Origin: Squalus acanthias
Taxonomy: Eukaryota
DNA: 64,000 bases
Direction: 5' to 3'
NCBI GenBank assembly: GCA_030390025.1
Contig: CM059432.1
Coordinates: forward strand, 21,392,001-21,456,000
A program made the translations under genes and the position numbers. Of the stretch, positions 1-47,061 are shown in pieces (the stretch's first letter is position 1; each line of letters begins with the position of its first letter). Below the pieces are notes generated by a model, which saw only the letters and a list, made by a program, of their open reading frames with translations, was not told the origin of the DNA and did not search any database.

Positions 1-976
1 ATCAGCAAGGAGCTGGTCACAGAGCTTTGCCACCTCCTGCAACCAGAGCTCCAGCCTCAGCTCAGGACCAGGACATCTCTGTCGGTGGCAGTGAAGGTCA
101 CAGTGGCTCTCAATTTCTACGCCAGCAGCTCCTTCCAGGCTTCAATGGGGGATATTGCGAACATCTCCCAGTTTGCTGTTCATTGCTGCATACGGGAGGT
201 CACAAATGCTCTATACCAAAGGAGAAGGGAGTACATCTCTTTCCCCATGACACGAGACAAACAGCGTGAACACGCATGTGGCATCGCAAGGAGAGCGGGC
301 TTCCCCATGGTTCAGGGCGCCATTGACTGCATGCACGTGGCATTGCGGGCACCTCATGAAAATGCAGAGGTTTTCCGCAACCACAAAGGCTAGCACTCTC
401 TGAAGATGCAGTTGGTATGCGACCACAGACAGCGCATCCTCGCTGTCAATACCCGCTATCCTGGCAGCAGCCACAATTCATTCATCCTGCGTCAGACTGG
501 TGTCCCAGACCTGTTCCAACCACCGCATCAACCTCGTGGCTGGCTCCTCAGGGACAAGGGTTATCCACTCTGCACCTGGCTGATGACACCGCTCCGTAAC
601 CCCAACACTCCTGCTGATCTCGCCTTCAATGAGAGCCATAGCGCCATTAGGAACCTCATTGAACAGACGATCGGCGTGCTGAAGCAACGGTTTCGGTGTC
701 TTGACAACTCTGGAGGAGCCCTGCAGTACTCCCTGATCGGGTGTCGGTTTTCATTGTTGTGTGCTGCATGCTTCATAACCTCGCCATTCTGAGGACCCAG
801 CCAATGCCACCAGGGATTGGTGCACCACCTCAGAGGAGGAAGAGGGAGAGGAGGAGGAGGAGGCGGTGGTGGAGGATGAAGAGGAGGAGGAGCAGCAACA
901 ACGTGTGAGGGAGCCTCTCAATGTTGCTTCTGCAAGGGCCGTTCGTTAACACCTCATAACACAGCGCTTCCAATGA
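1..976 (+). pseudogene. Harbinger (PIF) DDE transposase, decayed copy; 5' part lies outside the window
   Basis: Translates to VKVTVALNFYA...GAIDCMHV...DKGYP...RNLIEQTIGVLKQRF, collinear with the intact transposase at 38582-39742; in-frame TAG at 391-393 and a frameshift near 730; acidic tail, stop at ~974-976. Confidence 0.93.
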
Positions 977-1289
977 ATGACAGTGAAGATGGCTTTCGGG
1001 ATCAACAACCACATCATTACAGCCATCCTGCAGCCCCTATGAGCGGCCAAAGTTCCAATGAGAAACATGAGGAAATTTGTAACGTTTAAATAAATATTTT
1101 TATTCTTCTGAACAGCTGTGTCTTATTAAGCACAACCAATAACAAACTAACAAAACAATTTATTAAGACAACTGGTTCTTAGCACATCAAAATAATTCTT
1201 AACAAAGTGAACAATATATTTACAAACACATCCAACTTTGGTACAAACACCCCCCTGATTTAGTCAAAAAATTTTAGTTAGTCGGCCTT

Positions 1290-2700
1290 CAATGATCTCC
1301 CTCCCCTTTGCACTTACCCCCTCCCAACCCTACTGCTCCTCCGTAATGTGGCCCCGGCAAGGCTGGCAGAAGGCTGCTAAATCTCGGAGCCAGAGACTGG
1401 AGATGACTTGCAGGATGCCCTCGACCAGCTCCGAGCCTGGAGAGCCTGGCTGCAGACTGCACCAACTCTGCATGGGCGCAGCAGTCTGGGCTGGCTGGGT
1501 TACAGGCTGTGGCAAGTGCAATGGCAGAGTGGCAGTGGTGGCAGCAGGAATGCTGTCATCCCGAGAGAGGACAGCACCTCCCTGCTCCACCGACACACTG
1601 CCACTCCCCCAGGGCAGAACCACAGCATTTGGAGCAATCTGCTTGAGCACAGATTGCTGGCCTGCTGCGGCACCGTCAGATCCCCAGTGGACTGTGGGTG
1701 ACCCAGTGACGATGGTAGCAGTCAGCGCTTGCGTGGCATCAATCTGAGACTGCATCAGAGCAGTCTGAGATTGGATGGCACCAACCAATGACTCAATTCC
1801 AGCACTAAGCCGTTGCGTTGCCTCGGCCTGTGCTGCAATAGATGCTGCCACCTCACCCATTACACGTGGCATGGGGTCTGGGTTCCTACGGTCTCTCTGC
1901 AAGTCAACCATCCTTTGCAACGAGGCAAGGATGGGCTCGAGGGTTTGCACACAGATGATAGCTGTTCTGGCAGTGGACTCCTCCACGCTCCTAGCCAGTA
2001 CATCCATGCTCTCGGGCACCCTTGCCATTGCACCCATGATCTCTGTATGCATGCTTATCGCCTGTGTGTTTATTGCCGCGATATCGAGATCCTCATCCGA
2101 GTCCTGTGCAGCAGAACTCGTGCGCGCACTCACCCTCCGGGGAGATGGCCCCCGAGCTTCCCTTTCCCCATGGCGTTGCTGCAGCCCTCTGTGTCCCGGA
2201 GATTCACCCACATCAGTGCCAAATCCTCTGCTCCCCTCCAGTGACCGCGTGGCCCCAGTATCCGATGTGCCACCCTCGGGAGACGCAGGCAATGAGGCTC
2301 CGGCTTGGTGTTCCTGATCCTCTCCCATGTCGCTTCCACTGGGAGGCTGATGGACAGGCTGTTCAGATGATGGCTCACTATCTGAAAGCAGGAAGGCACA
2401 AGAGTGGCTTTAATGGGAGGGGAGGGGGGCAGGAAAGGAGCAAGGAATGGAGACAGTATACTTAGATGGAAAGTGGGAAGGACTCATGTTGTGAGGGGGA
2501 AGTGGTATGAGAGAGGAGAGAGAGATGATGAACATACCGTTGCTGTCCCCAAGGGGGTCGACCTCTCCGACGGCCACAGCGCCCACGACATGGCTTGCGA
2601 TTATTCTCTGCACTCGCTCCTCCAGCTGAGTGAGGGGGTGCAGCTCCGCCTGACCTTCTCCCATGCGTTGTTGCTCCCTCCTGTTATGACAAAGCTTGGC
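1290..2700 (-). pseudogene. Harbinger Myb/SANT-like gene, exon 2 (2538-2700) and exon 3 (from 2381 downward), decayed
   Basis: Exon 2 is 163 nt with ttgcag acceptor and gtatgt donor (AKLCHNRREQQRMGEG...), the same length as exon 2 of the intact copy; exon 3 resembles 37293-38269 but frameshifts near 1480; exon 1 not found. Confidence 0.85.
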
Positions 2701-2864
2701 CTGCAAGAAAAAGGACAGCGTGTGAGTCAGTGTCCAGCCATGTGTTTGGCAGATGTGCCTACCATAGTTGAATAGCCGTTAGTGTCTGCAAGGTGTGAGA
2801 TGTGGATGTGACTTTTAGTAGATGGGCATAATTGTTGGGTGAGTGTTGGGGATTTGGCAGTTTA

Positions 2865-3330
2865 TACCGTCTGTCATCTCTACTTCACCTGCTATCTATT
2901 CCATCAGCATGGATGCCATTTATACTGTCTCAACTTGGTCCTCAGAATCTGACCATGATGACCCCCAACACCAGCAGCACCAGGCACACTAGCAGCGCCA
3001 ACAACAACAGCACCAACCTTCTCCGCAATCACCTGACAGCACAGGACAGAGGGCATCAGCACACAAGCACATTGCTGCCCGGGTGGCCAGGAATGGCCTC
3101 ATTATGGCCAGATTTACTTCACTTGGCGCTGTACACCCATATGGCTGCCACATGATGCGCCAGGTTGGCACCACCCCACACCGACACCATAAAGCATCCC
3201 TGCAATGACCAAGCCATTCCTTTCACACTCACCACCATTGCTGGAGGTACCGTTATATCTCACCATTCACTGCAACTCACTGAACCACTTACAAAGGTGC
3301 ACACAAATCTGCCCAAGACTGGAAACTGTC
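2865..3330 (-). mobile_element. Internal fragment of the non-autonomous Harbinger family seen at 12385-14158 and 41441-47952
   Basis: Reverse complement aligns by eye to ~13210-13640 and ~43140-43530. Confidence 0.75.
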
Positions 3331-19939: not shown

Positions 19940-21315
19940 TTGTAGATTTACAAGGATGATACCAGAAATGCGAGGGTATACCTATCAGGAAAGGATGGAC
20001 CGGCTGGGTCTCTTTTCTTTTGAAAAGAGAAGACTGAAGGGTGACCTAATAGAGGTCTTTAAAATAATGACATGTTTTGATAGAGTAGATACAAAGGGGT
20101 AAAAATTCAGTTGGTTGCGTCTCCCGTTAGCGCCTTAAGAGGGCGCTAATGGGGCGCAAAGCCGCTAACGCCCGGGCGCAGCGATGTTTGCGCCGCTCGG
20201 GAACTTAACTAGAGATTGTGCGGCGGCGCTAAAACTTACCGCTGCGACCACCTGCGCGCGCAGATTATGACGTCATTCCATGGTGCAACGCCCTTGTGGC
20301 GCCCCGGAGCGGAAATTGAGTGGCGCCCCCTGCCTTACCGCCTGGCGCATCCAACGACCGGAAGACTGGAACGCTATCAATCGCTGTGGGGCTGGGGGGG
20401 GGCGCTATTTAAAGGGGGCCTCTTGCTGTCTTTTATTGTTGGTGGCATTTTTGAACTACGCATTCTGAGAGAGAGAGGGAGAGACTTCTGGAGAGATTCA
20501 ACGTTGTGTGAAGGAGTTTTGGGTACTGAGCAGCACTTTGCAGGTTCATTTTGATTTGCCATTCCTTGTATCGATTTAGCAGAGACTGTGGGAGCTGCAC
20601 TCTGAGCTCTTTGCCTGGTACTCTCCATTGTTCTTTCCAGCACATTTGATGTGCAAGTCTCTCCAGGCCGAGATTCAAGGCTGCAATGAACAGGATGTGG
20701 ATGGAAAGCAAGATTAACCATCCCCTTTAAGAACTGGCCCGTGCCATTGTGTGTGTGTTCCATTGCTGACTGACATTACATGAGCTTCGCCAGCGCTCTG
20801 AGGTAGCGCCTCACTCCTTGGCCTTTGCGCCTTAAGACAGGTGTGCAGCGCCTGATTTAGCGCTCCACTCACCTCCCGGGGCGTTAAAAGTGAAGTTTCC
20901 AGTCAGTGGCGATAATTAGCGCCAGGCGCTAATATTTGCGTCCAGACGATATTTGCGCCCCAAATGGGGCGCGACCTAATTTTTACCCCAAAGAGTTTCC
21001 ACTTGTGGGGAAGAGCAAAACTAGAGGCCATCAATGTAAGATAGTCACCAAGAAATCAAATAGGGAATTCAGAAGGAGCTTCTTTACCCAGAGAGTGGTG
21101 AGAATGTGGAACTCGCTACCACAGGGAGCGGTTGAAGTGAATAGTATAGATGCATTTAAGGGGAGGCTAGATAAGCATATGAGGGAGCAGGGAATAGAGG
21201 GTTATGCTGATAGTGTTAGACAAGGAAAGACCGGAGGAGGCTCGAGTGGAGCCGGCATGGACTGGTTGGGCCGAATGGCCTGTTTCTGTGCTGCATATCC
21301 TATGTAATCCAATGT
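19940..21315 (+). mobile_element. CR1 LINE 3' end split by the MITE at 20096-20989
   Basis: RFTRMIPEMRG..FDRVDTK continues after the insertion as EFPLVGKSKTRGH; tail cctatgtaatcc. Confidence 0.9.
20096..20989. mobile_element. 894-bp non-autonomous derivative of the Harbinger at 36038-40234
   Basis: TIR GGGGTAAAAATT at both ends; TSD AAA; both terminal regions closely match the two ends of the autonomous element. Confidence 0.95.
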
Positions 21316-33730: not shown

Positions 33731-36395
33731 TCCTACTCTTTGTTTCCTGTGTGCCAACCAGTTCTCAATCCACGTCAACACATTACCCCCAATCCCATGT
33801 GCTTTAACTTTGCTCACCAATCTCTTGTGTGGGACCTTGTCGAAGGCCTTCTGAAAGTCCAAATACACCACATCTACTGGTTCCCCCCTGTCCACCCTAT
33901 TGGAAACATCCTCAAAAAATTCCAGAAGATTTGTCAAGCATGATTTCCCTTTCACAAATCCATGCTGACTTGGACCTATCATGTCGCCACTTTCCAAATG
34001 GTCTGTTATGACATCTTTAATAATTGCTTCCATCATTTTACCCACGACCGATGTCAGGCTGACCGGTCTATAATTCCCTGCTTTCTCCCTCCCTCCTTTT
34101 TTAAAAAGAGGGGTTACATTGGCCACCCTCCACTCCATCGGAACTGATCCAGAGTCTAAGGAATGTTGGAAAATGATCGTCAATGCATCCACTATTTCCA
34201 AGGCCACCTCCTTAAGTACTCTGGGATGCAGACCATCAGGCCCTGGGGATTTTTCAGCCTTCAGTCCCATCAATTTCCCCAATACCTTTTCCCGACTAAT
34301 AAGGATTTCCCTCAGCTCCTCCCTCTTACCAGATCCTCTGACCCCTTTTATTTCCGGCAGGTTGTGTGTGTCCTCCACAGTAAACACCGAACCAAAGTAC
34401 TTGTTCAATTGATCAGCCATTTCCTTGTTCCCCATTACGACTTCCCCTGTTTCCGACTGCAGGGGACCTACGTTTGTTTTTACTAAGCTCTTTCTTTTTA
34501 CATATTTATAGAAGCTTTTGCAGTCCATTTTAATGTTCTCTGCAAGCTTCCTTTCATATTTTATTTTCCCTGCCCTAATCAAACCCTTCGTCCTCCTCTG
34601 CTGAGTTTTGAAGTTCTCCCAGTCCCCGGGTTTGCTGCTACTTCTGGCCAATTTGTATGCAACTTCCTTGGTTTTAATACTATCCCTGATTTCCCTTGTT
34701 AGCCATGGTTGAGCCACCTTCCCTTTTTTATTTTTACGCCAGACCGGGATGTACAATTGTTGTAGTTCATCCATGCGATCTCTAAATGTCTGCCATTGCC
34801 CTTCCACTGATAGCCCCTTAAATATCGCTTGCCAATTTAACCTCGCCAATTCACGCCTCATACCCTCAAAGTTGCCCTTATTTAAGTTCTGGACCATGGT
34901 CTCTGACTTAACTGTTTCCTTCTCCATCCTAATGTAGAACTCCACCATACTATGGTCACTCTTCCCCAGGGGGCCTCGTACCACAAGATTGCTGATTAGT
35001 CCCTCCTCATTACACAACACCCAGTCCAGGATGGCCTCCCCTCGAGTTGGTTCCTCAACATATTGGTTTAGGAAACCATCCCTTAAACACTCCAGGAAAT
35101 CCTCCTCCACCGTATTGCTTCCAGTTTGAGTAGCCCAATCTATATGCATATTAAAGTCACCCATGATAACTGCCGTGCCTTTTTTGCACGCACCTCTGAT
35201 TTCCTGTTTCATACCCTCCCCCACCTCACTACTGCTGTTTGGAGGTCTGTACACAACTCCCACTAACGTTTTCTGCCCTTTGGTGTTCTGCAGCTCAACC
35301 CATATTGATTCCACATCCTCCAAGCTGATGTCCTTCCTAGCTATTGCATTAATCTCCTCTTTAACCAGCAATGCTACCCCACCCCCTTTTCCTTTTATTC
35401 TATCCTTTCTGAATGTTGAATACCCCTGGATGTTCAGTTCCCAGCCTTGATTGTTCTGGAGCCACGTCTCTGTAATCCCAATCACATCGTATCCGTTAAC
35501 ATCTATTTGCACAGTCAATTCATCCACCTTATTACGGATACTCCTTGCATTAAGACACAGAGATAGAATATAATGTGGAGAAATATGAAGTTATTCACTT
35601 TGGTAGGAAAAATAGAAAAGGAAAATTATTTTTAAAATGGTGAGAGACTGGGAAATGTTGGTATTCAGAGGGACCTTGGTGTTCTTGTACACAAAATACT
35701 GAAAGTTAACATGCAGGTACAGCAAACAATTAGGAAAGCAAATAGTATGTTAGCCTTTATTACAAAGGGATTACAGTATAAGAGTAGAAGTCTTACTACA
35801 ATTATATAGGGCCTTGGTGAAACCACACCTGGAATATTCTACAGTTTTGGTCTCCTTACCTAAAGAAGGATATACTTGCCTTAGAGGAAGTGCAATGTAG
35901 TTTTACTAAACTGATTCATGGGATGAGGGGATTGTCCTACGAGGAGAGATTGAGCAGACTAGGCCTATATTCTCTAGAGTTTAGAAGTATGAGAGGTGAT
36001 CGAATTGAAACATGTTGGCCCAGAAATTAAACACTGAGGGGGAAAAATTAGGTCGCGCCCCATTTGGGGCGCAAATATCGTCTGGACGCAAAAATTAGCG
36101 CCTGGCGCTAATTATCGCCACTGACTGGAAACTTCACTTTTACCGCCCCGGGAGGTGAGTGGAGCGCTAAATCAGGCGCTGCACACCTGTCTTAAGGCGC
36201 AAAGGCCGAGCAGTGAGGCGCTAACTCAGCGCGCGAGCGCAGCGCAGGTGCTGCCAGTTAGCGAGGGAACACAGACACACTGGCGCCGGCCAGTTCTTAA
36301 AGCGGGGGGGCCAACTTGCTCCCCAGCCAAACCCTACTCATTGCAGCCTTGAATCTCGGCCTGGAGAGACCTGTGAATCCATTTTGCTGCCAAGG

Positions 36396-38269
36396 ATGGA
36401 GAGGGTGAGAGAACGAGCTCAGCGCTTCACCGAGCGGGCCTTGGATGCTCTGGTTGGCGCGGTGGAGCGCAGAAGATCTATACTCTTCCCTGAGAGTGGC
36501 AGGAGGCCTTTGCCACGCGAGTACAGAAGAGTGTGGAGGGAGGTGGCTCAGAGCATCTCCTCCAGGAGCATGGTGCCCAGGACCCATGTTCAATGCCGCA
36601 AAAAGTTCAACGACCTCACTCGGGTCGTCAGGGTGAGTGGCTTTTTCTCAATACCTCTCCATCCCTCCATCTCAACCTCACTCTATGGCCAGAGGGTCTT
36701 AAAACCCCAATGCACAACACTCATCCAACACCTATGGCCCTTTCATGAAACACACACACACATTCCACACTTTGCATACAGTAAGGGCTATTCACCTATG
36801 GGAGGCACATCAGGCAAGACCATGGCTGCATACAGTAAGGGCTATTCACCTATGGGAGGCACATCAGGCAAGACCATGGCTGCATACAGTAAGGGCTATT
36901 CACCTATGGGAGGCACATCAGGCAAGACCATGGCTGTATATTTACTCAGATGCTGTCCTTTTACTTGCAGGCCAAGCTGGCGCATAATAGGAGACAGCAG
37001 CAACGGACAGGTGGAGGGCGGCCTCAGCTGCAACCCCTCAGCGATCTTGAGGAGCGCGTCCACAGGATTGTGGCAAGCCGGGTGATCGGTCCCGTCGCCA
37101 CTGGAGACGCCGACCCCGTTCTGGACAGCAATGGTAAGGTCATCACCTTTTTGTCCTCTGTCCTTCCACTTGTCCCTCACAACACCAGCCTTTGACACTT
37201 TCAATCCAACTTGCTAACTCGCTGCACTTATTCCTCCCTTACTGCCACCCTGTCCTCACGCTAATGCCACTCTTGTACCTCCCTGCTTTCAGATGGTGAT
37301 TCACCAGCTGAGGAGACGGGCCCTGAAGCTGCCAGTGGGAGTGAAGCTGCAGCCGAGGAGGAAGAGGAAGCCGGAGCATCAGTGCCACCCTCTCCCGAGG
37401 AAGCCCATGCCCACACTGGGAACACGCCTTCCCTGGAGGGGAGCAGTGGGGAAGGGTCTGATGAGGGTGAAGCTCCAGGACCCAGCGGGCTGCAGCAATG
37501 CCATGGGGGTAGGGAAGAACGGGGGCCTTCTCCCCAGAGGGAGAGTATGCCAGCGACTCCTACTGCAATGGACGCAGAGGAGGAGCGGCTGATCGCAGAA
37601 ATGAACACCCAGGCGGTGGGCATGCACACTGAGCTCATGGGTGCAGTGGGAAGGGTGCCCGAATGCATTGAGTCACTGGCAAGGAGTGTGGAGCACTTCG
37701 CTGTAGCACAGGCGGATGCCACACTAACGCTTAGTGCTGCAATTCAGTCACTGACTGCCGTGATCCCATCTCTGACTGCTCTCATGCAGACTCAGATTGA
37801 GGCCACGCGAGCACTGACTGCTGCCAACCTCGATGGTTTGTTCACATGTCCCCGGGGCTCTCACCGCGCCGCAGCAGGCCAGCAATCTGTGCCCCAGCAG
37901 ATTGCTCCGGATGCTGAAGTGCTGCCCCGTGGGAGTGCCAGTGTGTTGGGCGAGCAGGGAGTTGCTGTCCTCTCTCACGATGACAGCATTCCTGCTGCCA
38001 ACACTGTCACTTCTCCACTGCACTTGCCACCGCCTGTAGGACAGACTGCTGCCGCCCATGCAGAGTTGGTGCAGTCTGCAGCCGGGCCCTCCAGGCCCAG
38101 AACTGGTCGAGGCCGTCCTTCAGGGGCATCTGCAGTGTCAGGGTCTGACAATCAGCAGCCTTCCACCAGCCTTGCTGCAGCCACTGAGGTCCCATTACGG
38201 AGGAGCAGTAGGGTTAGAAGGGGGGAAGTGCGCAAGGGAAGGAGATCACCCTCGAAGGGCAAAAAGTAG
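36396..38269 (+). CDS. Harbinger Myb/SANT (trihelix-like) DNA-binding protein, 3 exons (36396-36632, 36971-37133, 37293-38269), 458 aa
   Basis: MERVRERAQRFTERALDALV..W..VA..RTHVQCRKKFNDL; GT-AG junctions in phases 0 and 1 join into one 1377-nt frame; basic C-terminus RRSSRVRR..KGKK. Confidence 0.88.
36773..36936. repeat. 54-bp tandem repeat, 3 copies, in Myb intron 1
   Basis: TGCATACAGTAAGGGCTATTCACCTATGGGAGGCACATCAGGCAAGACCATGGC three times, identical by eye. Confidence 0.95.
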
Positions 38270-38581
38270 GAGGTGTGACAAAATGCTGGTCATTTTTTTA
38301 TTAAAGGCCGAGGTTCGTGGTCCAACTTTTGCCTAGTGTTTTGGACATTATCTCCAGGTTGTGAGAACCAGTTATGTTAATGACTGTTTTTTTGTGTTTA
38401 TTTCTATGAGTTTGTCATGAGGAAATGACACACACAGAGTTTGTAAAATAAATACGTTTTTGTATTCAAAATATACATGTTTGGTGTTTGGAATCATTGG
38501 TGCCTTGGCCGGCTTAGGGGTTGCGTGCTGGGTTCATTGATGTTGTTAGCAATGGCAGAAGCCATTTCCACAGCAGGGGCC

Positions 38582-39742
38582 CTAGAAGCGGCTTGCTATC
38601 AGCCGTTGACGGACGGCCCTTGCAGTTTCACCATTGTGGGCCGCCCTCCCGCCTTGGTGCTGCTGATGATCATCCTCCTCGTCCTCTTCCTCCTCTTCCT
38701 CCTCCTCCTCTGGTGGTGCTCCAAGGCCTGGTGGCATTGGCTGGGTCCTGACGATTGCCATGTTATGCAACATGCAGCACACAACTACGAAGTTGGATAC
38801 TCGCTCAGGCGAGTACTGCAGGGCTCCTCCAGAATGGTCGAGACAGCGGAACCGTTGCTTCAGCACGCCAATTGTGTGCTCAATGATGTTCCTGGTAGCT
38901 TGATGGCTCTCGTTGTACCGCAGCTCAGCAGGGGTGTTGGGCGTACGGAGCGGTGTCATCAGCCAGGTGCTCAATGGATACCCCTTGTCCCCGAGAAGCC
39001 AACCAACTGGCTGATGCGGTGCCTCAAAAAGTTCTGCCACAGTAGTCTGGCGCAGGATGAAAGCATCGTGGCAGCTGCCAGGATAGTGGGCATTGACAGC
39101 GAGTATCAGCTGTCTGTGGTCACAGACCAACTGAACATTCAAGGAATGGAACCCCTTTCTGTTCCGGAATTCCTCGGCATTCTCATGTGGAGCACGCAAA
39201 GCCACATGCGTGCAGTCAATGGCGCCCTGCACCATGGGGAAGCCTGCTATCCTCGCAAAGCCCAGAGCGCGGTCACGCTGCTTGTCTGGGGTCATGGGGA
39301 AAGAGATGAACTCTCGTCTCCTTTTAAAGAGGGCATTTGTGACCTGCCGGATGCAGCAATGCACCGCGAACTGGGAGATATTGGCGAGGTCCCCAGCAGC
39401 AGCTTGAAATGAGCCAGTAGCATAGAAGTTGAGAGCCACTGTGACCTTCACTGCCACCGACAGAGACGTCCTGGACCTCAGTTGAGGCTGCAGATCTGGC
39501 TGCAGCAGGTGGCAGAGCTCAGTGACCACCTCCTTGCTGAATCGCAGCCTTCGCAAACACAGCTCCTCAGACATATGAATGTAGGAGAGCTGTTCACGAT
39601 ATACCCTGGGAGGGTAAGCTCTCCTGTACATACGCCTGTTGGCCCTCCTCTGTCTGGCCATCATTGCCACTCTCTCTCTGCGTCTCTGTGTCCTCCGATT
39701 CAGCTGGAGCAGGACGACGCCCCCAATCAGTGCAGCCCCCAT
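38582..39742 (-). CDS. Harbinger DDE transposase (HARBI1-like family), 386 aa, intact
   Basis: First ATG at 39742; N-terminal LRFSKEVV..L region; catalytic motifs GAIDCTHV, LLGDKGYP and RNIIEHTIGVLKQRF; no stops. Confidence 0.95.
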   Translation of the reverse strand: MGAALIGGVVLLQLNRRTQRRRERVAMMARQRRANRRMYRRAYPPRVYREQLSYIHMSEELCLRRLRFSKEVVTELCHLLQPDLQPQLRSRTSLSVAVKVTVALNFYATGSFQAAAGDLANISQFAVHCCIRQVTNALFKRRREFISFPMTPDKQRDRALGFARIAGFPMVQGAIDCTHVALRAPHENAEEFRNRKGFHSLNVQLVCDHRQLILAVNAHYPGSCHDAFILRQTTVAELFEAPHQPVGWLLGDKGYPLSTWLMTPLRTPNTPAELRYNESHQATRNIIEHTIGVLKQRFRCLDHSGGALQYSPERVSNFVVVCCMLHNMAIVRTQPMPPGLGAPPEEEEEEEEEDEEDDHQQHQGGRAAHNGETARAVRQRLIASRF

Positions 39743-41940
39743 AGTCTCTTTGCAAGCAAAGTTATGAAGGACAGCAACCAAAGTACCAGCGAAGTTAGGA
39801 TCAGTAGGCAAAACTACCTCACACAGCGTTGACTCAATGCAGAAGTCTCTCTTTCTCTCTCTCCGAATCTCTCTCTCTCTCTCAGAACGAGTGGTGCAAA
39901 AATGTCAACCACAGAAAAAGACAGGAAGAGGCCCCCTTTAAATAGCGCCCCCCCCAGCCCCACAGCGATTGATAGCGTTCCAGTCTTCCGGTCGTTGGAT
40001 GCGCCAGGCGGTAAGGCAGGGGGCGCCACTCAATTTCCGCTCCGAGGCGCCACAAGGGCGTTGCACCATGGAATGACGTCACAATCAGCGGTAAAGTTTA
40101 GCGCCGCCGCACAATGTCTAGTTAAGTTCCCGAGCGGCGCAAACATCGCTGCGCCCGGGCGCTAGCGGCTTTGCGCCCCATTAGCGCCCTCTTAAGGCGC
40201 TAACGGGAGGCGCAACCAACTGAATTTTTACCCCTGAGTCTTCACGCGGGGGTAAGGCTTCCCCGCGATATCTCACTCCGCGCCTACCTTTTTCCTCCGA
40301 GCCCACACAAACTTTAGTTTCAAGGCTGCAGCTGTGCAGTGCTTGCGTGACCCAGAGACGCAATTAGTTCGTGCGAGCTCTGGGATCACGTGATTCAGTT
40401 AGAGCCAATGGCAGCACACCATCTTTCATTCATAGTTTTCACAGCAAGAGCTGTCAAAGCTTTGAATACTATACCCCCCCAAAAGAACAGCTAAAGCTCA
40501 ATTAAATTAAAAAAAGCCATCACATTAATAAAATAAGTATAGTTAAATAAATTAACCACTTTAAACAAAAAATTAAATTTTTGAAAAAATTTGAAATCTT
40601 TTTAAAAGTTATAAAAATAAACTTACCTTTCTTTAAAGTCTCTAAAAAAGATAAACCTGTTGAAAATTTTTTAAAATAATACTTAATTAACTACTTACCT
40701 TGTTAAAAGAGGGTCTTACGCCTCCTTTCTTTATGTGTAAAATCTTCCATGCTTACCTGCGCGTTCAAAGCACTAAGTGCACTGCGTGCGCGCAGCCTGT
40801 AGCGCGCACGCGATTCACTTAGGAACCGCCCCCTTTTGAATTCACGAAGTGCCGGTTTCCCACGCATGCGCAGTGCATGCTGGAAACCGGCAATTGGAGA
40901 CCTAAAACGTGAGAGTACACAGTGCGTACTCTCGCGTATTAGGTCTAATTTTCAGGCCATAAAATTCTTACAGGGCTTGACAGGGTGGATACTGGGAGGA
41001 TGTTTCCCTTGGCTGGGGAGTCTAGAACCAGGGGTCACAGTCTGAGAATAAGGGGTTGGCCATTTAGGACTGAGATGAGGAGAAAGTTCTTCACTCAGAG
41101 GGTGGTGAATCTTTGGAATTCTCTACCCCAGAGGGCTGTGGAGGCTCAGTCGTTGAGTTTATTCAAGAAAGAGATATATTTTTGGATACTAAGGGAATCA
41201 AGGGATATGGGGATAGTCAGGAAAGTGGAGTTGAGGTAGAAGATCAGCCATGATCTTATTGAATGGCGGAGCAGGCTCGAAGGGCCGAATGGCCTACTCC
41301 TGCTTCTATTTCTTATGTTCTTATTAGTAAATAATGGTTTAGCTTCCCGCCAAGGCTATATAGTTTATAGTTTAAATGCAGCCAGAATCCAGAGTCAGGG
41401 CCCAATATAATCAAAGTGATGTGAGACTCCCTGAGACAGGGGGCTGGATTTTACCAACCTCGGCAGGGCCGTGGCGGGTCCCGACCCCGCTGCTGGCTCC
41501 AGCCTGCTGTCCAAAATGATTTTCCACTGATTGGGCTTGTTTGCCGGCCAGCACGTTTGCCAGCCAATTGATGATGCGTCATCAGTTGGTTTCCCTAAAG
41601 GGACTTTGCGCAAATTGATTTTGACAGTCACAGCACACAGGGAGTATCTCTTCCCTTCCAATGGGTGGAAGAGACCTCCCCGGGAGACCAACGCAGCCTG
41701 GTTGCACAATACACAGGAGGACATAAGCAGGGATGTCATCAGGAGGACCAGGCTGGAGTAGCACAAACATTTCAATGATCTCAGTAGATCACGAAACGTT
41801 ACTGCAAAGCCACACTCAACCTCATCCTGCTGTGCCACTCCTCACATCCCCATCACTCTGCCTTCCCTACCCTACTCCTGCACATCCTTACTCACACCAA
41901 CTTACCTTGCACCTCCACCCATCCCTCTCTATCTACATTG

Positions 41941-44163: not shown

Positions 44164-44937
44164 GGGGGAAAAATTCAGCTGCTTGCGCCTCCCGTTAGCG
44201 CCTTAAGAGGGCGCTAATGGGGCGTAAAGCAGCTAACGCCCGGGCGCAGCGCCGCCCACGCCTCCCGAAAAATTTAGTGGGAGGTTAGCGGCGGCGGCAG
44301 CCGGTAGCGCCCTGTGGCGCTGCGCTGCCGGCGATGATGTCATCGCCGTGCGCAGCACCCCGCTCGCGCCCCGGCCGTGATCTTCAGTCGCGCCCCCTGA
44401 TTTACCAGCCAGACGCTATGTCCGACGGGTTCAGGGAGGCGTACGTGCGGCCGGGGTGGCGATATTTAAAGGGGAGGTGGCAGGCGGCCATTTTTGTTGC
44501 TGGCCGCCTGCCAGCACCTGCCCCCGTTGCTGTCCCCGGCCCCCGTGAAGCCCCCCCACCGTGAAGTGCCGGCTGCGCTCCAAGAGCCCGGCACTTCTCT
44601 TGAGTGCCGGGCTCTTTTGCCGGCACTCCCGATCCCTGGGGGCCCAGCTGGGCCCCGGTTCGCGCTGCGCAGGGTCCCTCCCCTTTAAGAAGGGGAGGAA
44701 GGCCTGCAATACCGCGGCGCGACGTGCCGCAGCGCGTGGCGCTGCGGCACGTAGCGCCAGGATATTCCCTCGCAGCGCCCCAAGAGGGATGCGGGGTGCT
44801 TCCAGTGGCGCCCCGCTTCCCTCTTGGGGCGCAACCACTGAAGTTCCGGCGCGGGGCCGCTAATTTTTTCGGGGCGCTAAAAGTCGCGCCCCGGCAAGGT
44901 TAGCGCCCCAAATGGGGCGCGACTCAATTTTTACCCC
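44164..44937. mobile_element. 774-bp GC-rich MITE with termini like the autonomous Harbinger
   Basis: TIR GGGG(G/T)AAAAATT; TSD AAA; TTAGCGCC subterminal motifs. Confidence 0.92.
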
Positions 44938-45373: not shown

Positions 45374-47061
45374 TGTAAGAAATAGCTATTAGAGTCATAG
45401 ATGAAGTTTGACTCTTAGAACAGAAATTAAAACTGCAGTCAGGAGCAAAATGGGGGAAGTGTCAGCAAGGTCAATTAACAAACACCAAAATGATAAGGTT
45501 GTAAAATGCAAGAAAACAAGGGAGGATAGCACTAGCTGGACAATAAGGAGCCACGAAACCATAAAATGTCCCTGAAAAAACATAACAAAACATTCCTCAG
45601 AAAGATAAGAGAAAAGGACTCGGTGGCCATTAAGGAGAGAAACAGGGAGGGATGTTTTCCCGCATCACACTTGGGATATAGGTGAATGACATTAAATAAA
45701 TCACGGCCCACCGAAATAATTATAAAGATACTGGGCTGAGAGCAGAAGTCAGACAGCGAGGAGCGAAGGCTTCTTCGAGGTGGAAATCAATGCTGGCTCA
45801 GGCCTAACACCTTGACTAAGTTTAGCCTCTGAGGTGGATCAATGCTGGCTTATGCCTAACACCTCCAACAGCCCAGGGGACGAATCAACAGAAGTGACTG
45901 CTGCGCTGATTGCAGAAACCAGCTGACCCAAGACCTCCACGCTGCCTCATCAGACATCCAACCAACCGTCCGTCCGGTCGTGGTGTTCCGCTTCGGGAGC
46001 CGTAGATCGCTCTCTACTGTCACGGGTTGTATGTTTATTATACTCAGCTTAAACCATATGTAATATCTGATTATGCTTTAAAACTGTAGGGGGGAAAAAT
46101 TCAGTTGGTTGCGCCTCCTGTTAGCGCCTTAAGAGGGCGCTAATGGGGCGCAAAGCAACTAGCGCCCGGGCACGACAATGTTTGCGCCGCTCGCGAAATT
46201 AACTAGACATTTTGCGGCGGCACTAAACACTACCGCCACGATCTCCTGCGCCGGCAGATAGTGTCGTCAGGCGAGTGTGCAACGCCCCGGTAGTGCCCCG
46301 GTGCGGATATTGAGTGGCACCCCCTGCCTTACCGCCTGCCGCTAGCAATGACAGGTTGAGGGGAGCATTTTGCAGTCAGGAAGGGACTGGGGGAGCGCTA
46401 TTTAAAGGCGACTGCTTCCTGCCTTTTTTTGTTGGTGACATTTTTGTACCACGCATTCTGAGAGAGAAAGAGAGAGACTTCTAGAGAGATTCAATGCTGT
46501 GTGAAGGAGTTTTGGGCTACTGAGCAGCACTTTGCAGGTTCATTTTGATTTGCGCTTCCTTGTATCGATTTAGAAGAGACTTTGGGGGCTGCACTCGTAG
46601 CTCTTTCCCTGGTTCTCTCCATTGTTCTTTCCAGCAGATTTGATGTACAGGTCTCTCCAGGCCGAGATTCAAGGCTGCAATGAGAAGGATGTGGATGGAA
46701 AGCAAGATCAACCCTCCCCTTTAAGAACTGGCCGGCGCCATTGTGTCTGTATTCCATTGCTGACTGACATCACATGAGCTTCGCCAGCGCTCTGAGTTAG
46801 CGCCTCGCTCCTCGGCCTTTGCGCCTTAAGACAGATGTGTAGCGCCTGATTTAGCGCTCCAATCACCTCCAGGGGCGAAAAAAGTCAAGTTTGCAGTCGG
46901 AGGCGATAATTAGCGCCAGGCGCTAATCTTTGCGCCCGGCCGATAATTGCGCCCCAAAAGGGGCGATACTGAATTTCTCCCCCTAGCTCTTTAAATAAAA
47001 GCCTTACAACTTCTAAAGCCCTGTTGGGTAATCTGTGTGAGCCTGTGATCCTGATCTTACA
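45374..47061 (+). mobile_element. Solo LTR (~790 bp without its insertion)
   Basis: Termini TGTAAGA...TCTTACA; 4-bp TSD GAAG; TATAAA at 45721 and AATAAA near 46994; absent from the paralogous host copy near 60270. Confidence 0.85.
46090..46983. mobile_element. 894-bp Harbinger MITE, same family as 20096-20989
   Basis: Ends GGGGGAAAAATTCAG / CTGAATTTCTCCCCC; TSD TAG; same internal sequence. Confidence 0.95.

Follow-up and report, generated by a model that had tools for sequence, protein, structure and literature searches.

A complete Harbinger transposon with both genes open, from a very abundant family in the genome of Squalus acanthias, probably spread by a burst since ended

For transposition of the PIF/Ping/Pong type, two proteins encoded by the element itself are required (PMC2836001), and Harbinger transposition is likewise described as needing both proteins (PMC9179366). 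In vertebrates, the active system is Harbinger3_DR of zebrafish, a reconstructed element (Sinzelle et al., 2008, as cited in PMC3016246), the target of which is given in PMC3016246 as AAACACCWGGTCTTT, i.e., AAACAC-CWG-GTCTTT. Large natural expansions are reported in the coelacanth, where LatiHarb1 amounts to 9.3% of the genome (PMC3787270), and in the newt Pleurodeles waltl, where a recent burst of Harbingers is described together with their expression (PMC5741667). Jawed vertebrates also possess domesticated Harbinger genes, namely HARBI1 and NAIF1/MSANTD (PMC9392472). Respective to cartilaginous fishes, PMC9179366, a study of Harbingers in fish, detected none in the elephant shark and names other species of this group as needing examination, Harbinger/Tourist elements are the commonest DNA transposons in the genome of the grey reef shark (PMC12498223), and a limited search of the literature found no paper characterising an elasmobranch Harbinger family. 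The present work deals with a Harbinger element of 4,197 bp at positions 36038-40234 of a stretch of 64,000 nucleotides from Squalus acanthias (assembly GCA_030390025.1, contig CM059432.1, positions 21,392,001 to 21,456,000 of the forward strand), hereafter called the window. In our judgement, this element is a complete copy, with its coding capacity intact, from a PIF/Harbinger family of great abundance, which was probably spread by a burst of a transposase-plus-Myb system that has since ended.

The element is flanked on both sides by TGA and carries two convergent genes, one for a DDE transposase, the other for a Myb-like protein, the three exons of the latter joining into a single frame of 458 residues. 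With its target-site duplications (TSDs), its terminal inverted repeats (TIRs) and the repeat in which it is inserted, it is composed of the following features.

36016-36037 and 40235-40960: host repeat of about 750 bp, with approximate boundaries (~36016, ~40960)
36035..36037, unstranded: left TSD, TGA, present as a single uninterrupted TGA in 9 of 11 host-repeat paralogues
36038..36049, plus strand: left TIR, GGGGGAAAAATT, the same terminus being present in sibling copies
36095..36224, unstranded: left subterminal region, in which the TTAGCGCC/GGCGCTAA motif occurs three times
36396..36632, plus strand: Myb gene exon 1 (residues 1-79), ATG at 36396, matching Myb_DNA-bind_5 with E 2.1e-10
36633..36970, plus strand: predicted intron 1, 338 nt, GT..AG
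36971..37133, plus strand: Myb gene exon 2, conserved in an older, 75%-identical element (2410-2778)
37134..37292, plus strand: intron 2, 159 nt, GT..AG, skipped exactly in contigs of sequencing runs X1, X2 and X7
37293..38269, plus strand: Myb gene exon 3 including the TAG stop, its C-terminal region acidic and helical and without a Pfam family
38270..38581, unstranded: spacer of 312 bp between the convergent genes, with poly(A) signals, placed by motif position alone, at 38300 and 38447 (plus) and at 38297 and 38397 (minus)
38582..39742, minus strand: coding sequence of the transposase, 386 residues plus stop, DDE_Tnp_4, from its stop-free frame and Pfam match
40085..40086, unstranded: site of a 19-bp deletion private to the window copy, which lies upstream of the transposase gene within the right subterminal region
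40098..40203, unstranded: right subterminal region with three TTAGCGCC/GGCGCTAA motifs
40223..40234, minus strand: right TIR, AATTTTTACCCC, with one mismatch to the left TIR
40235..40237, unstranded: right TSD, TGA

The limits of the element could be verified on the repeat that hosts it. Homology to a long interspersed nuclear element (LINE) ends at 36013 on the left side, and the Harbinger sits 22 bp inside a young host repeat, the copies of which are 97-99% alike and which abuts this LINE fragment. In 9 of the 11 host-repeat paralogues, the site is uninterrupted and reads GGCCCAGAAATTAAACAC TGA GTCTTCACGCGGG (AAACAC TGA GTCTTC), so that the element boundaries and the TGA duplication are exact. 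The other two paralogues carry a Harbinger at the same site in opposite orientation, from which it follows that this site was struck on three or more independent occasions. In all, 3 of the 12 host-repeat copies examined, the window copy included, have a Harbinger in one orientation or the other at position ~22. The 12-bp TIRs are complementary at 11 positions in the window copy. Across the family, the mismatched base is either A or C, the C variant providing a 12/12 match, and the right TIR of the window copy is of the A variant, as in about half of the family. An earlier reading of this DNA from its letters alone (hereafter the sequence-only reading) had described an intact two-gene Harbinger with a TGA TSD, 12-bp TIRs, a stop-free transposase of 386 residues with three acidic motifs and a convergent three-exon Myb/SANT gene giving one frame of 458 residues, the whole nested in other repeats. 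All these features are present, the family assignment and coding intactness being borne out by the frames, domains, TIRs and TSD, the termini by the uninterrupted paralogues, and the nested position by the young host repeat next to the LINE fragment.

Far from being isolated, the window copy belongs to a very large family. Exact matches to a 31-mer taken from the transposase gene number 2,764 across the 3.71-Gb genome, against 0 for the reversed control, and this number is a lower bound on transposase-bearing copies; at 4.2 kb each, these represent about 0.3% of the genome. In a DNA search of the genome, 35 matches were scored out of 5,063 first-look candidates and all 35 were full length, with 98-99% identity. 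The first 100 of the 2,764 31-mer places, all on contig C1, were then used as a sample of copies, 85 of which proved full length from end to end, with a perfect 3-bp TSD in 64 of these 85. Among the 85, the Myb frame (splice sites included) is open in 47, the transposase frame in 46 and both frames in 25, i.e., 25 of the 100 sampled, while among the 30 copies that most resemble the window copy both are open in 16. If the share of 25 in 100 held for all 2,764 places, about 700 copies genome-wide would have both frames open. With at least 2,764 copies and both frames open in about a quarter, the window copy is therefore one of many and not a rare survivor. Deletion derivatives retaining only the Myb gene were considered when 10 matches covering just ~1-2598 of the query looked truncated; three of those, together with two others matching ~1-3060, were fetched and all five proved full length, which lends no support to such derivatives in this family.

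The divergence among copies bears on the age of this family. Relative to the column-wise majority of the 85 full-length copies, it has a median of 1.12% (quartiles 0.87% and 1.51%, minimum 0.60%), the sampled copies lying 0.6-2% from the majority and none of the 85 under 0.5%; outside CpG sites, these values fall to 0.85% (median) and 0.46% (minimum). The window copy itself stands 0.63% away (0.40% non-CpG), a lower value being found in just one of the 85 sampled copies, and its nearest sibling, among the matches listed in the genome search, differs by 0.88%. For two other intact copies, the genome-wide nearest neighbours stand ~0.7% and ~1.0% away, as estimated from bit scores. Among copies whose flanks differ, the closest pair is 0.63% apart. 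The sole pair under 0.6%, L068 and L069 (G000:C1, at ~19.92 and ~19.95 Mb), is 0.07% apart with identical flanks 32 kb apart and, because the flanks are shared, corresponds to a recent segmental duplication including a Harbinger. Apart from this pair, more than 99.5% identity between copies at different loci, by which an active family would be recognised, was found nowhere among the copies compared. The sequence-only reading had taken the window copy to be young, which is correct insofar as it ranks among the least diverged (0.63%). It had also considered that a lack of near-identical siblings would refute it: thousands of copies do exist, but the nearest sibling listed is still 0.88% different, and none of the 85 sampled copies lies within 0.5% of the majority, a situation close to such a lack.

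As for absolute time, the mutation rate measured in another shark is given as 7e-10 per bp per generation (95% confidence interval 1.4-14.1e-10; PMC10587355), at which a non-CpG divergence of 0.4-0.5% would represent millions of generations. Run contigs under seven organism labels (A, B, D-H) contain 54-64% of the sampled 31-mers of the element, and in the runs under labels D and E the element pieces are 98-99% alike, a pattern that would fit a burst predating some species splits.

The open frames themselves can be examined for traces of selection. For substitutions seen in a single copy, pN/pS (the non-synonymous to synonymous ratio among copies) is 0.71 in the transposase and 0.99 in the Myb gene, stops making up 2-4% of the changes; for shared substitutions, i.e., those that arose on lineages that later copied themselves, it is 0.51 and 0.79, respectively. 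The length of the transposase is changed in ~20 of 51 copies. At ~1% divergence, a rough neutral estimate predicts that about half of the frames would be open, versus ~55% observed, and no present-day selection is needed to account for the open frames. Deeper in time, an older Harbinger relative, ~75% identical, lies at 2-2790 of the window (minus relative to the element) and is cut by the window start. Against this relative, dN/dS (the ratio of non-synonymous to synonymous divergence) is 0.14 for the transposase and 0.24 for Myb exon 2, from which we conclude that the proteins mattered during lineage propagation. The relative has in-frame stops in its transposase; its Myb exon 3 frame (1330-2409) is kept open, with an insertion of 45 residues compared with the young family and a dN/dS of 0.77, and the C-terminal part of the Myb-like protein evolves fast.

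Regarding the proteins of the window copy, the transposase matches the Pfam family DDE_Tnp_4 (PF13359) with E 4.2e-40 over the entire profile (1-158 of 158) at residues 175-327. Its acidic triad is composed of D176 (in GAIDCTHV), D252 (in LLGDKGYP) and E288 (in IIEHTIG), which, following Harbinger and HARBI1 alignments, we take to be the catalytic residues. In two sets of copies, this triad is kept in all open copies of unchanged length examined (24/24 and 23/23). Compared with the family majority, the window transposase differs by two residues only, namely R31Q and R289H, the latter adjoining E288. In aligned homologues, the position of E288 is occupied by K, R, Q, G or D in 12 of 18, the family described here keeping E, and 8 of the 12 elasmobranch proteins named 'HARBI1' that were aligned belong to the set without E at this position.

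Concerning the Myb gene, the donor of exon 1 reads AGG/GTGAGT, and the window protein is 6-7 residues off the family majority. Intron 1 contains a 54-bp tandem repeat (window 36773-36940), the number of units of which varies among family copies; among copies, this intron is 230, 284, 338, 392, 446, 500 or 608 nt long, most of these lengths being 54 nt apart, and 284 nt is the commonest in the first 60 sampled places. The joint expected from removal of intron 2 (37133/37293) is found in contigs of X1, X2 and X7, i.e., under two organism labels and in two studies, with a depth of 52-211 for the joined form. As intron 2 is present in 81 of 81 aligned genomic copies (80 distinct insertions) and missing from none, the joined form is most simply spliced RNA. 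Of the two junctions predicted by the sequence-only reading, the one at 37133/37293 is thus present in contigs of probable RNA runs, whereas 36632/36971 was unseen in seven contig runs; the acceptor of intron 1 is used by one X7 contig joint, from 36154 to 36971, at depth 7. The raw poly-A RNA of X18 is uninformative about expression, just 8 reads matching, all on a CT-rich simple repeat at ~39846-39883. The poly(A) motifs of one gene alternate with those of the other at window 38297-38452; if these signals were used, the two transcripts would share sequence at their 3' ends, from which double-stranded RNA could arise.

Additional support for the gene model comes from homologous proteins. For the protein part encoded by Myb exon 3, a word-based search for homologues gave no match, and a full HMMER scan retrieved 13 among 1.84 billion representatives. 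Two sawshark proteins, P0123 (554 residues) and P0126 (377 residues), carry the Myb domain and are colinear with the spliced model over both exon junctions, including R79/A80, at 37% identity; since these are annotated proteins colinear across both junctions, they support the three-exon model and, for intron 1, this colinearity is the only support. Another protein of Pristiophorus japonicus, P0122 (801 residues), is annotated as a RING/B-box/PML-coiled-coil (TRIM-like) protein, the residues 614-791 of which are homologous to the C-terminal part of the Harbinger Myb-like protein (E 3.5e-31), and may represent exon capture or a gene-model fusion.

The insertion sites of the family share a characteristic layout. 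Of 79 distinct insertions, 67 have a perfect TSD, and in the flanks of these 67 position -4 is A in 61, position -1 is C in 51, position +1 is G in 49 and position +4 is T in 58, giving the palindromic consensus ARACAC-WWW-GTSTYT. The duplicated triplet has the 3-bp length of Harbinger TSDs and is A/T-rich, TAA (10 of 67), TAT (10) and AAA (9) being the commonest; it is not strictly TWA, the classical composition for this superfamily, TAA or TTA accounting for 15 of the 67, and TGA occurs once, in the window copy.

Just inside the TIRs, the 8-mer TTAGCGCC is strongly concentrated, with 20 matches in the window versus 0.87 expected, all of them within the ends of Harbingers or of their MITEs (miniature inverted-repeat transposable elements). 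By analogy, these motifs are likely binding sites of the Myb-like protein. The window contains three such MITEs, which have the same TIRs, TTAGCGCC motifs and a 3-bp TSD.

20096-20989: Harbinger MITE, 894 bp
44164-44937: Harbinger MITE, 774 bp
46090-46983: Harbinger MITE, 894 bp

All three retain the start of the Myb open reading frame of a related subfamily, and a 30-mer marker of this MITE type occurs 12,246 times in the genome. The ends of these MITEs, including the 894-bp one put forward as a donor by the sequence-only reading, are merely 82-86% identical to the full-length element.

How the family may have spread can be proposed from what is known of Harbinger3_DR and Ping/Pong. The subterminal TTAGCGCC motifs would be contacted by the Myb-like protein, which would bring in the transposase; the latter would cleave at the TIRs and integrate into the palindrome, so that its three central bases become duplicated, and related MITEs, having these ends and motifs in common, would be moved in trans. 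Following the burst, the open frames would have persisted because neutral decay proceeds slowly where the genome mutates slowly, and not through present-day selection. The window copy would then be a well-preserved relic, for which activity is possible. Several points weigh against this account. The end of the burst is based on 100 of the 2,764 places, from one contig, plus neighbour searches for three copies, and rare recent insertions would escape such a sample; moreover, the distance to a majority of mixed subfamilies overstates age, and ages in years hinge on the mutation rate of a different shark (PMC10587355). Binding to TTAGCGCC, recruitment between the two proteins and mobilisation of the MITEs in trans we infer by analogy with other systems. 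On the side of transcription, the RNA status of X1, X2 and X7 is a tool label, 'RNA?', i.e., a guess, the intron 2 joint is absent from the joints listed for X3, X4, X13 and X14, and the junction of intron 1 is the one unseen, as reported above.

The alternative that survives best is the one proposed by the sequence-only reading, according to which the family is still transposing and the window copy is autonomous and active without reconstruction. Such an element would be expected to have both frames open, as it does in common with a quarter of the sampled copies and 16 of the 30 closest, together with an intact D-D-E triad, TSDs that are perfect in 64 of 85 copies, a spliced junction in probable RNA contigs of two organisms and a low divergence, a single sampled copy being less diverged. 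Its non-coding ends are also CpG-island-like, with observed/expected ratios of 0.83 and 0.94; the description of the copy as CpG-rich holds mainly for these ends, the gene bodies being at 0.41-0.53 (0.47 for the whole window). Against ongoing activity stand the absence of any of the 85 copies within 0.5% of the majority, the smallest distance of 0.63% between copies with different flanks and the nearest genome-wide neighbours of three intact copies at ~0.7-1.0%. The 19-bp deletion of the window copy points in the same direction: the deleted nucleotides are present in 29 of 29 siblings compared, a 36-mer across the deletion junction occurs once in the genome, and the assembly therefore holds no daughters carrying this deletion. 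Besides, the share of open frames fits the rough neutral decay described above, with its stops at 2-4% of singleton changes and ~20 of 51 transposases changed in length, and the majority-state protein of either gene is encoded by none of the copies examined. Ongoing transposition appears unlikely on this evidence, and an ended burst remains the preferred reading.

Two further explanations can be dealt with briefly. That both genes are host-domesticated, HARBI1/NAIF1-like genes and not a transposon could be prompted by the nearest database proteins being named 'putative nuclease HARBI1', but this is refuted by the insertion structure (TIRs, TSD and precise paralogous empty sites) and the copy number (no fewer than 2,764, at loci that are unrelated and differ in their flanks), single-copy substitutions moreover accumulating nearly neutrally, and its probability is close to nil. 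That the copies arose by segmental duplication or assembly redundancy and not by transposition applies to the pair L068/L069 alone, 0.07% different and sharing flanks 32 kb apart; for the family overall this is refuted and may be regarded as virtually impossible, every other sampled copy having different flanks and its own 3-bp duplication, at target sites with a palindromic motif in common.

Some candidates for empty sites were also considered. A joint from 36038 to 40246 in X3 and X4 was rejected as an empty allele, for its 7 foreign letters and short sides of 20-24 nt indicate a paralogous host-repeat copy. Allelic empty sites were sought for two copies on small contigs, L002 and L010, the flanks of which are repetitive, and no allelic contig turned up for either. 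At L002:800-1100 and many G000 loci, a repeat of ~300 bp exists in dozens of copies 99-100% identical over 297-301 bp, which may be a very young SINE-like family (short interspersed nuclear element). In G000:C3:64286338-64319120, six matches to the flank repeat of L010 are ~6.4 kb apart, a spacing that suggests a tandem array of a longer unit.

The state of this family is unusual in two respects, namely that most of its ~2,800 copies with a transposase gene are full length and have not shrunk to MITEs, and that about a quarter of the copies keep both genes open at ~1% divergence. It is conceivable, though we would tend to doubt it, that hundreds of natural copies still encode a working transposase and Myb-like protein, which would make this the first vertebrate Harbinger that could be taken from a genome and used as it is, its inherent preference being for a palindromic target of ~15 bp. 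Were even one copy functional, it would provide a natural vertebrate Harbinger system, the strong sequence-specific target preference of which would be of interest for targeted-insertion tools, as well as a model for slow-mutating genomes preserving transposon genes long after a burst; were no copy to work, the family would be an ordinary but well-preserved transposon fossil bed.

Compared with known systems, the closest relatives by sequence are elasmobranch. Nearly all top matches to the transposase come from this group, the best outside the genome being a 'putative nuclease HARBI1' of Pristiophorus japonicus at 67% identity; two proteins of this species, P0002 and P0003, are colinear with the full-length transposase at 61-67% identity, with a coverage of 100% for P0003. 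No protein above 67% identity to the transposase was found in a search of 5.8 billion clusters, in which the present family is therefore unrepresented. With the domesticated HARBI1 and NAIF1, the element has the same two protein domains in common, but these genes are single-copy, syntenic and devoid of TIRs, whereas the element is multicopy with TIRs and TSDs. Like PIF, Ping/Pong and the mPing Tourist MITEs of plants, it combines two-protein coding, a 3-bp TSD and MITEs sharing its ends; unlike PIF/Ping/Pong, its accessory protein is of the vertebrate Myb_DNA-bind_5 type and its TSD is not restricted to TWA, and, unlike in the plant MITE pairings, the MITE ends are only 82-86% identical to those of the element. 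As with the Harbingers of coelacanth and newt, a high copy number and a Myb-like gene are found in a large or slowly evolving vertebrate genome; it differs from these expansions by its cartilaginous-fish lineage and by an unusually high share of full-length copies (85/100). Finally, like Harbinger3_DR, the element possesses a DDE transposase, a Myb-like protein and a 3-bp TSD, and the arms of the target palindrome match, the window site being AAACAC-TGA-GTCTTC, a likeness of layout and of target arms. Where the central triplet of Harbinger3_DR is CWG, it is here A/T-rich, most often TAA, TAT or AAA, and, whereas the zebrafish element had to be rebuilt, hundreds of natural copies are found here, by extrapolation, with both frames open.

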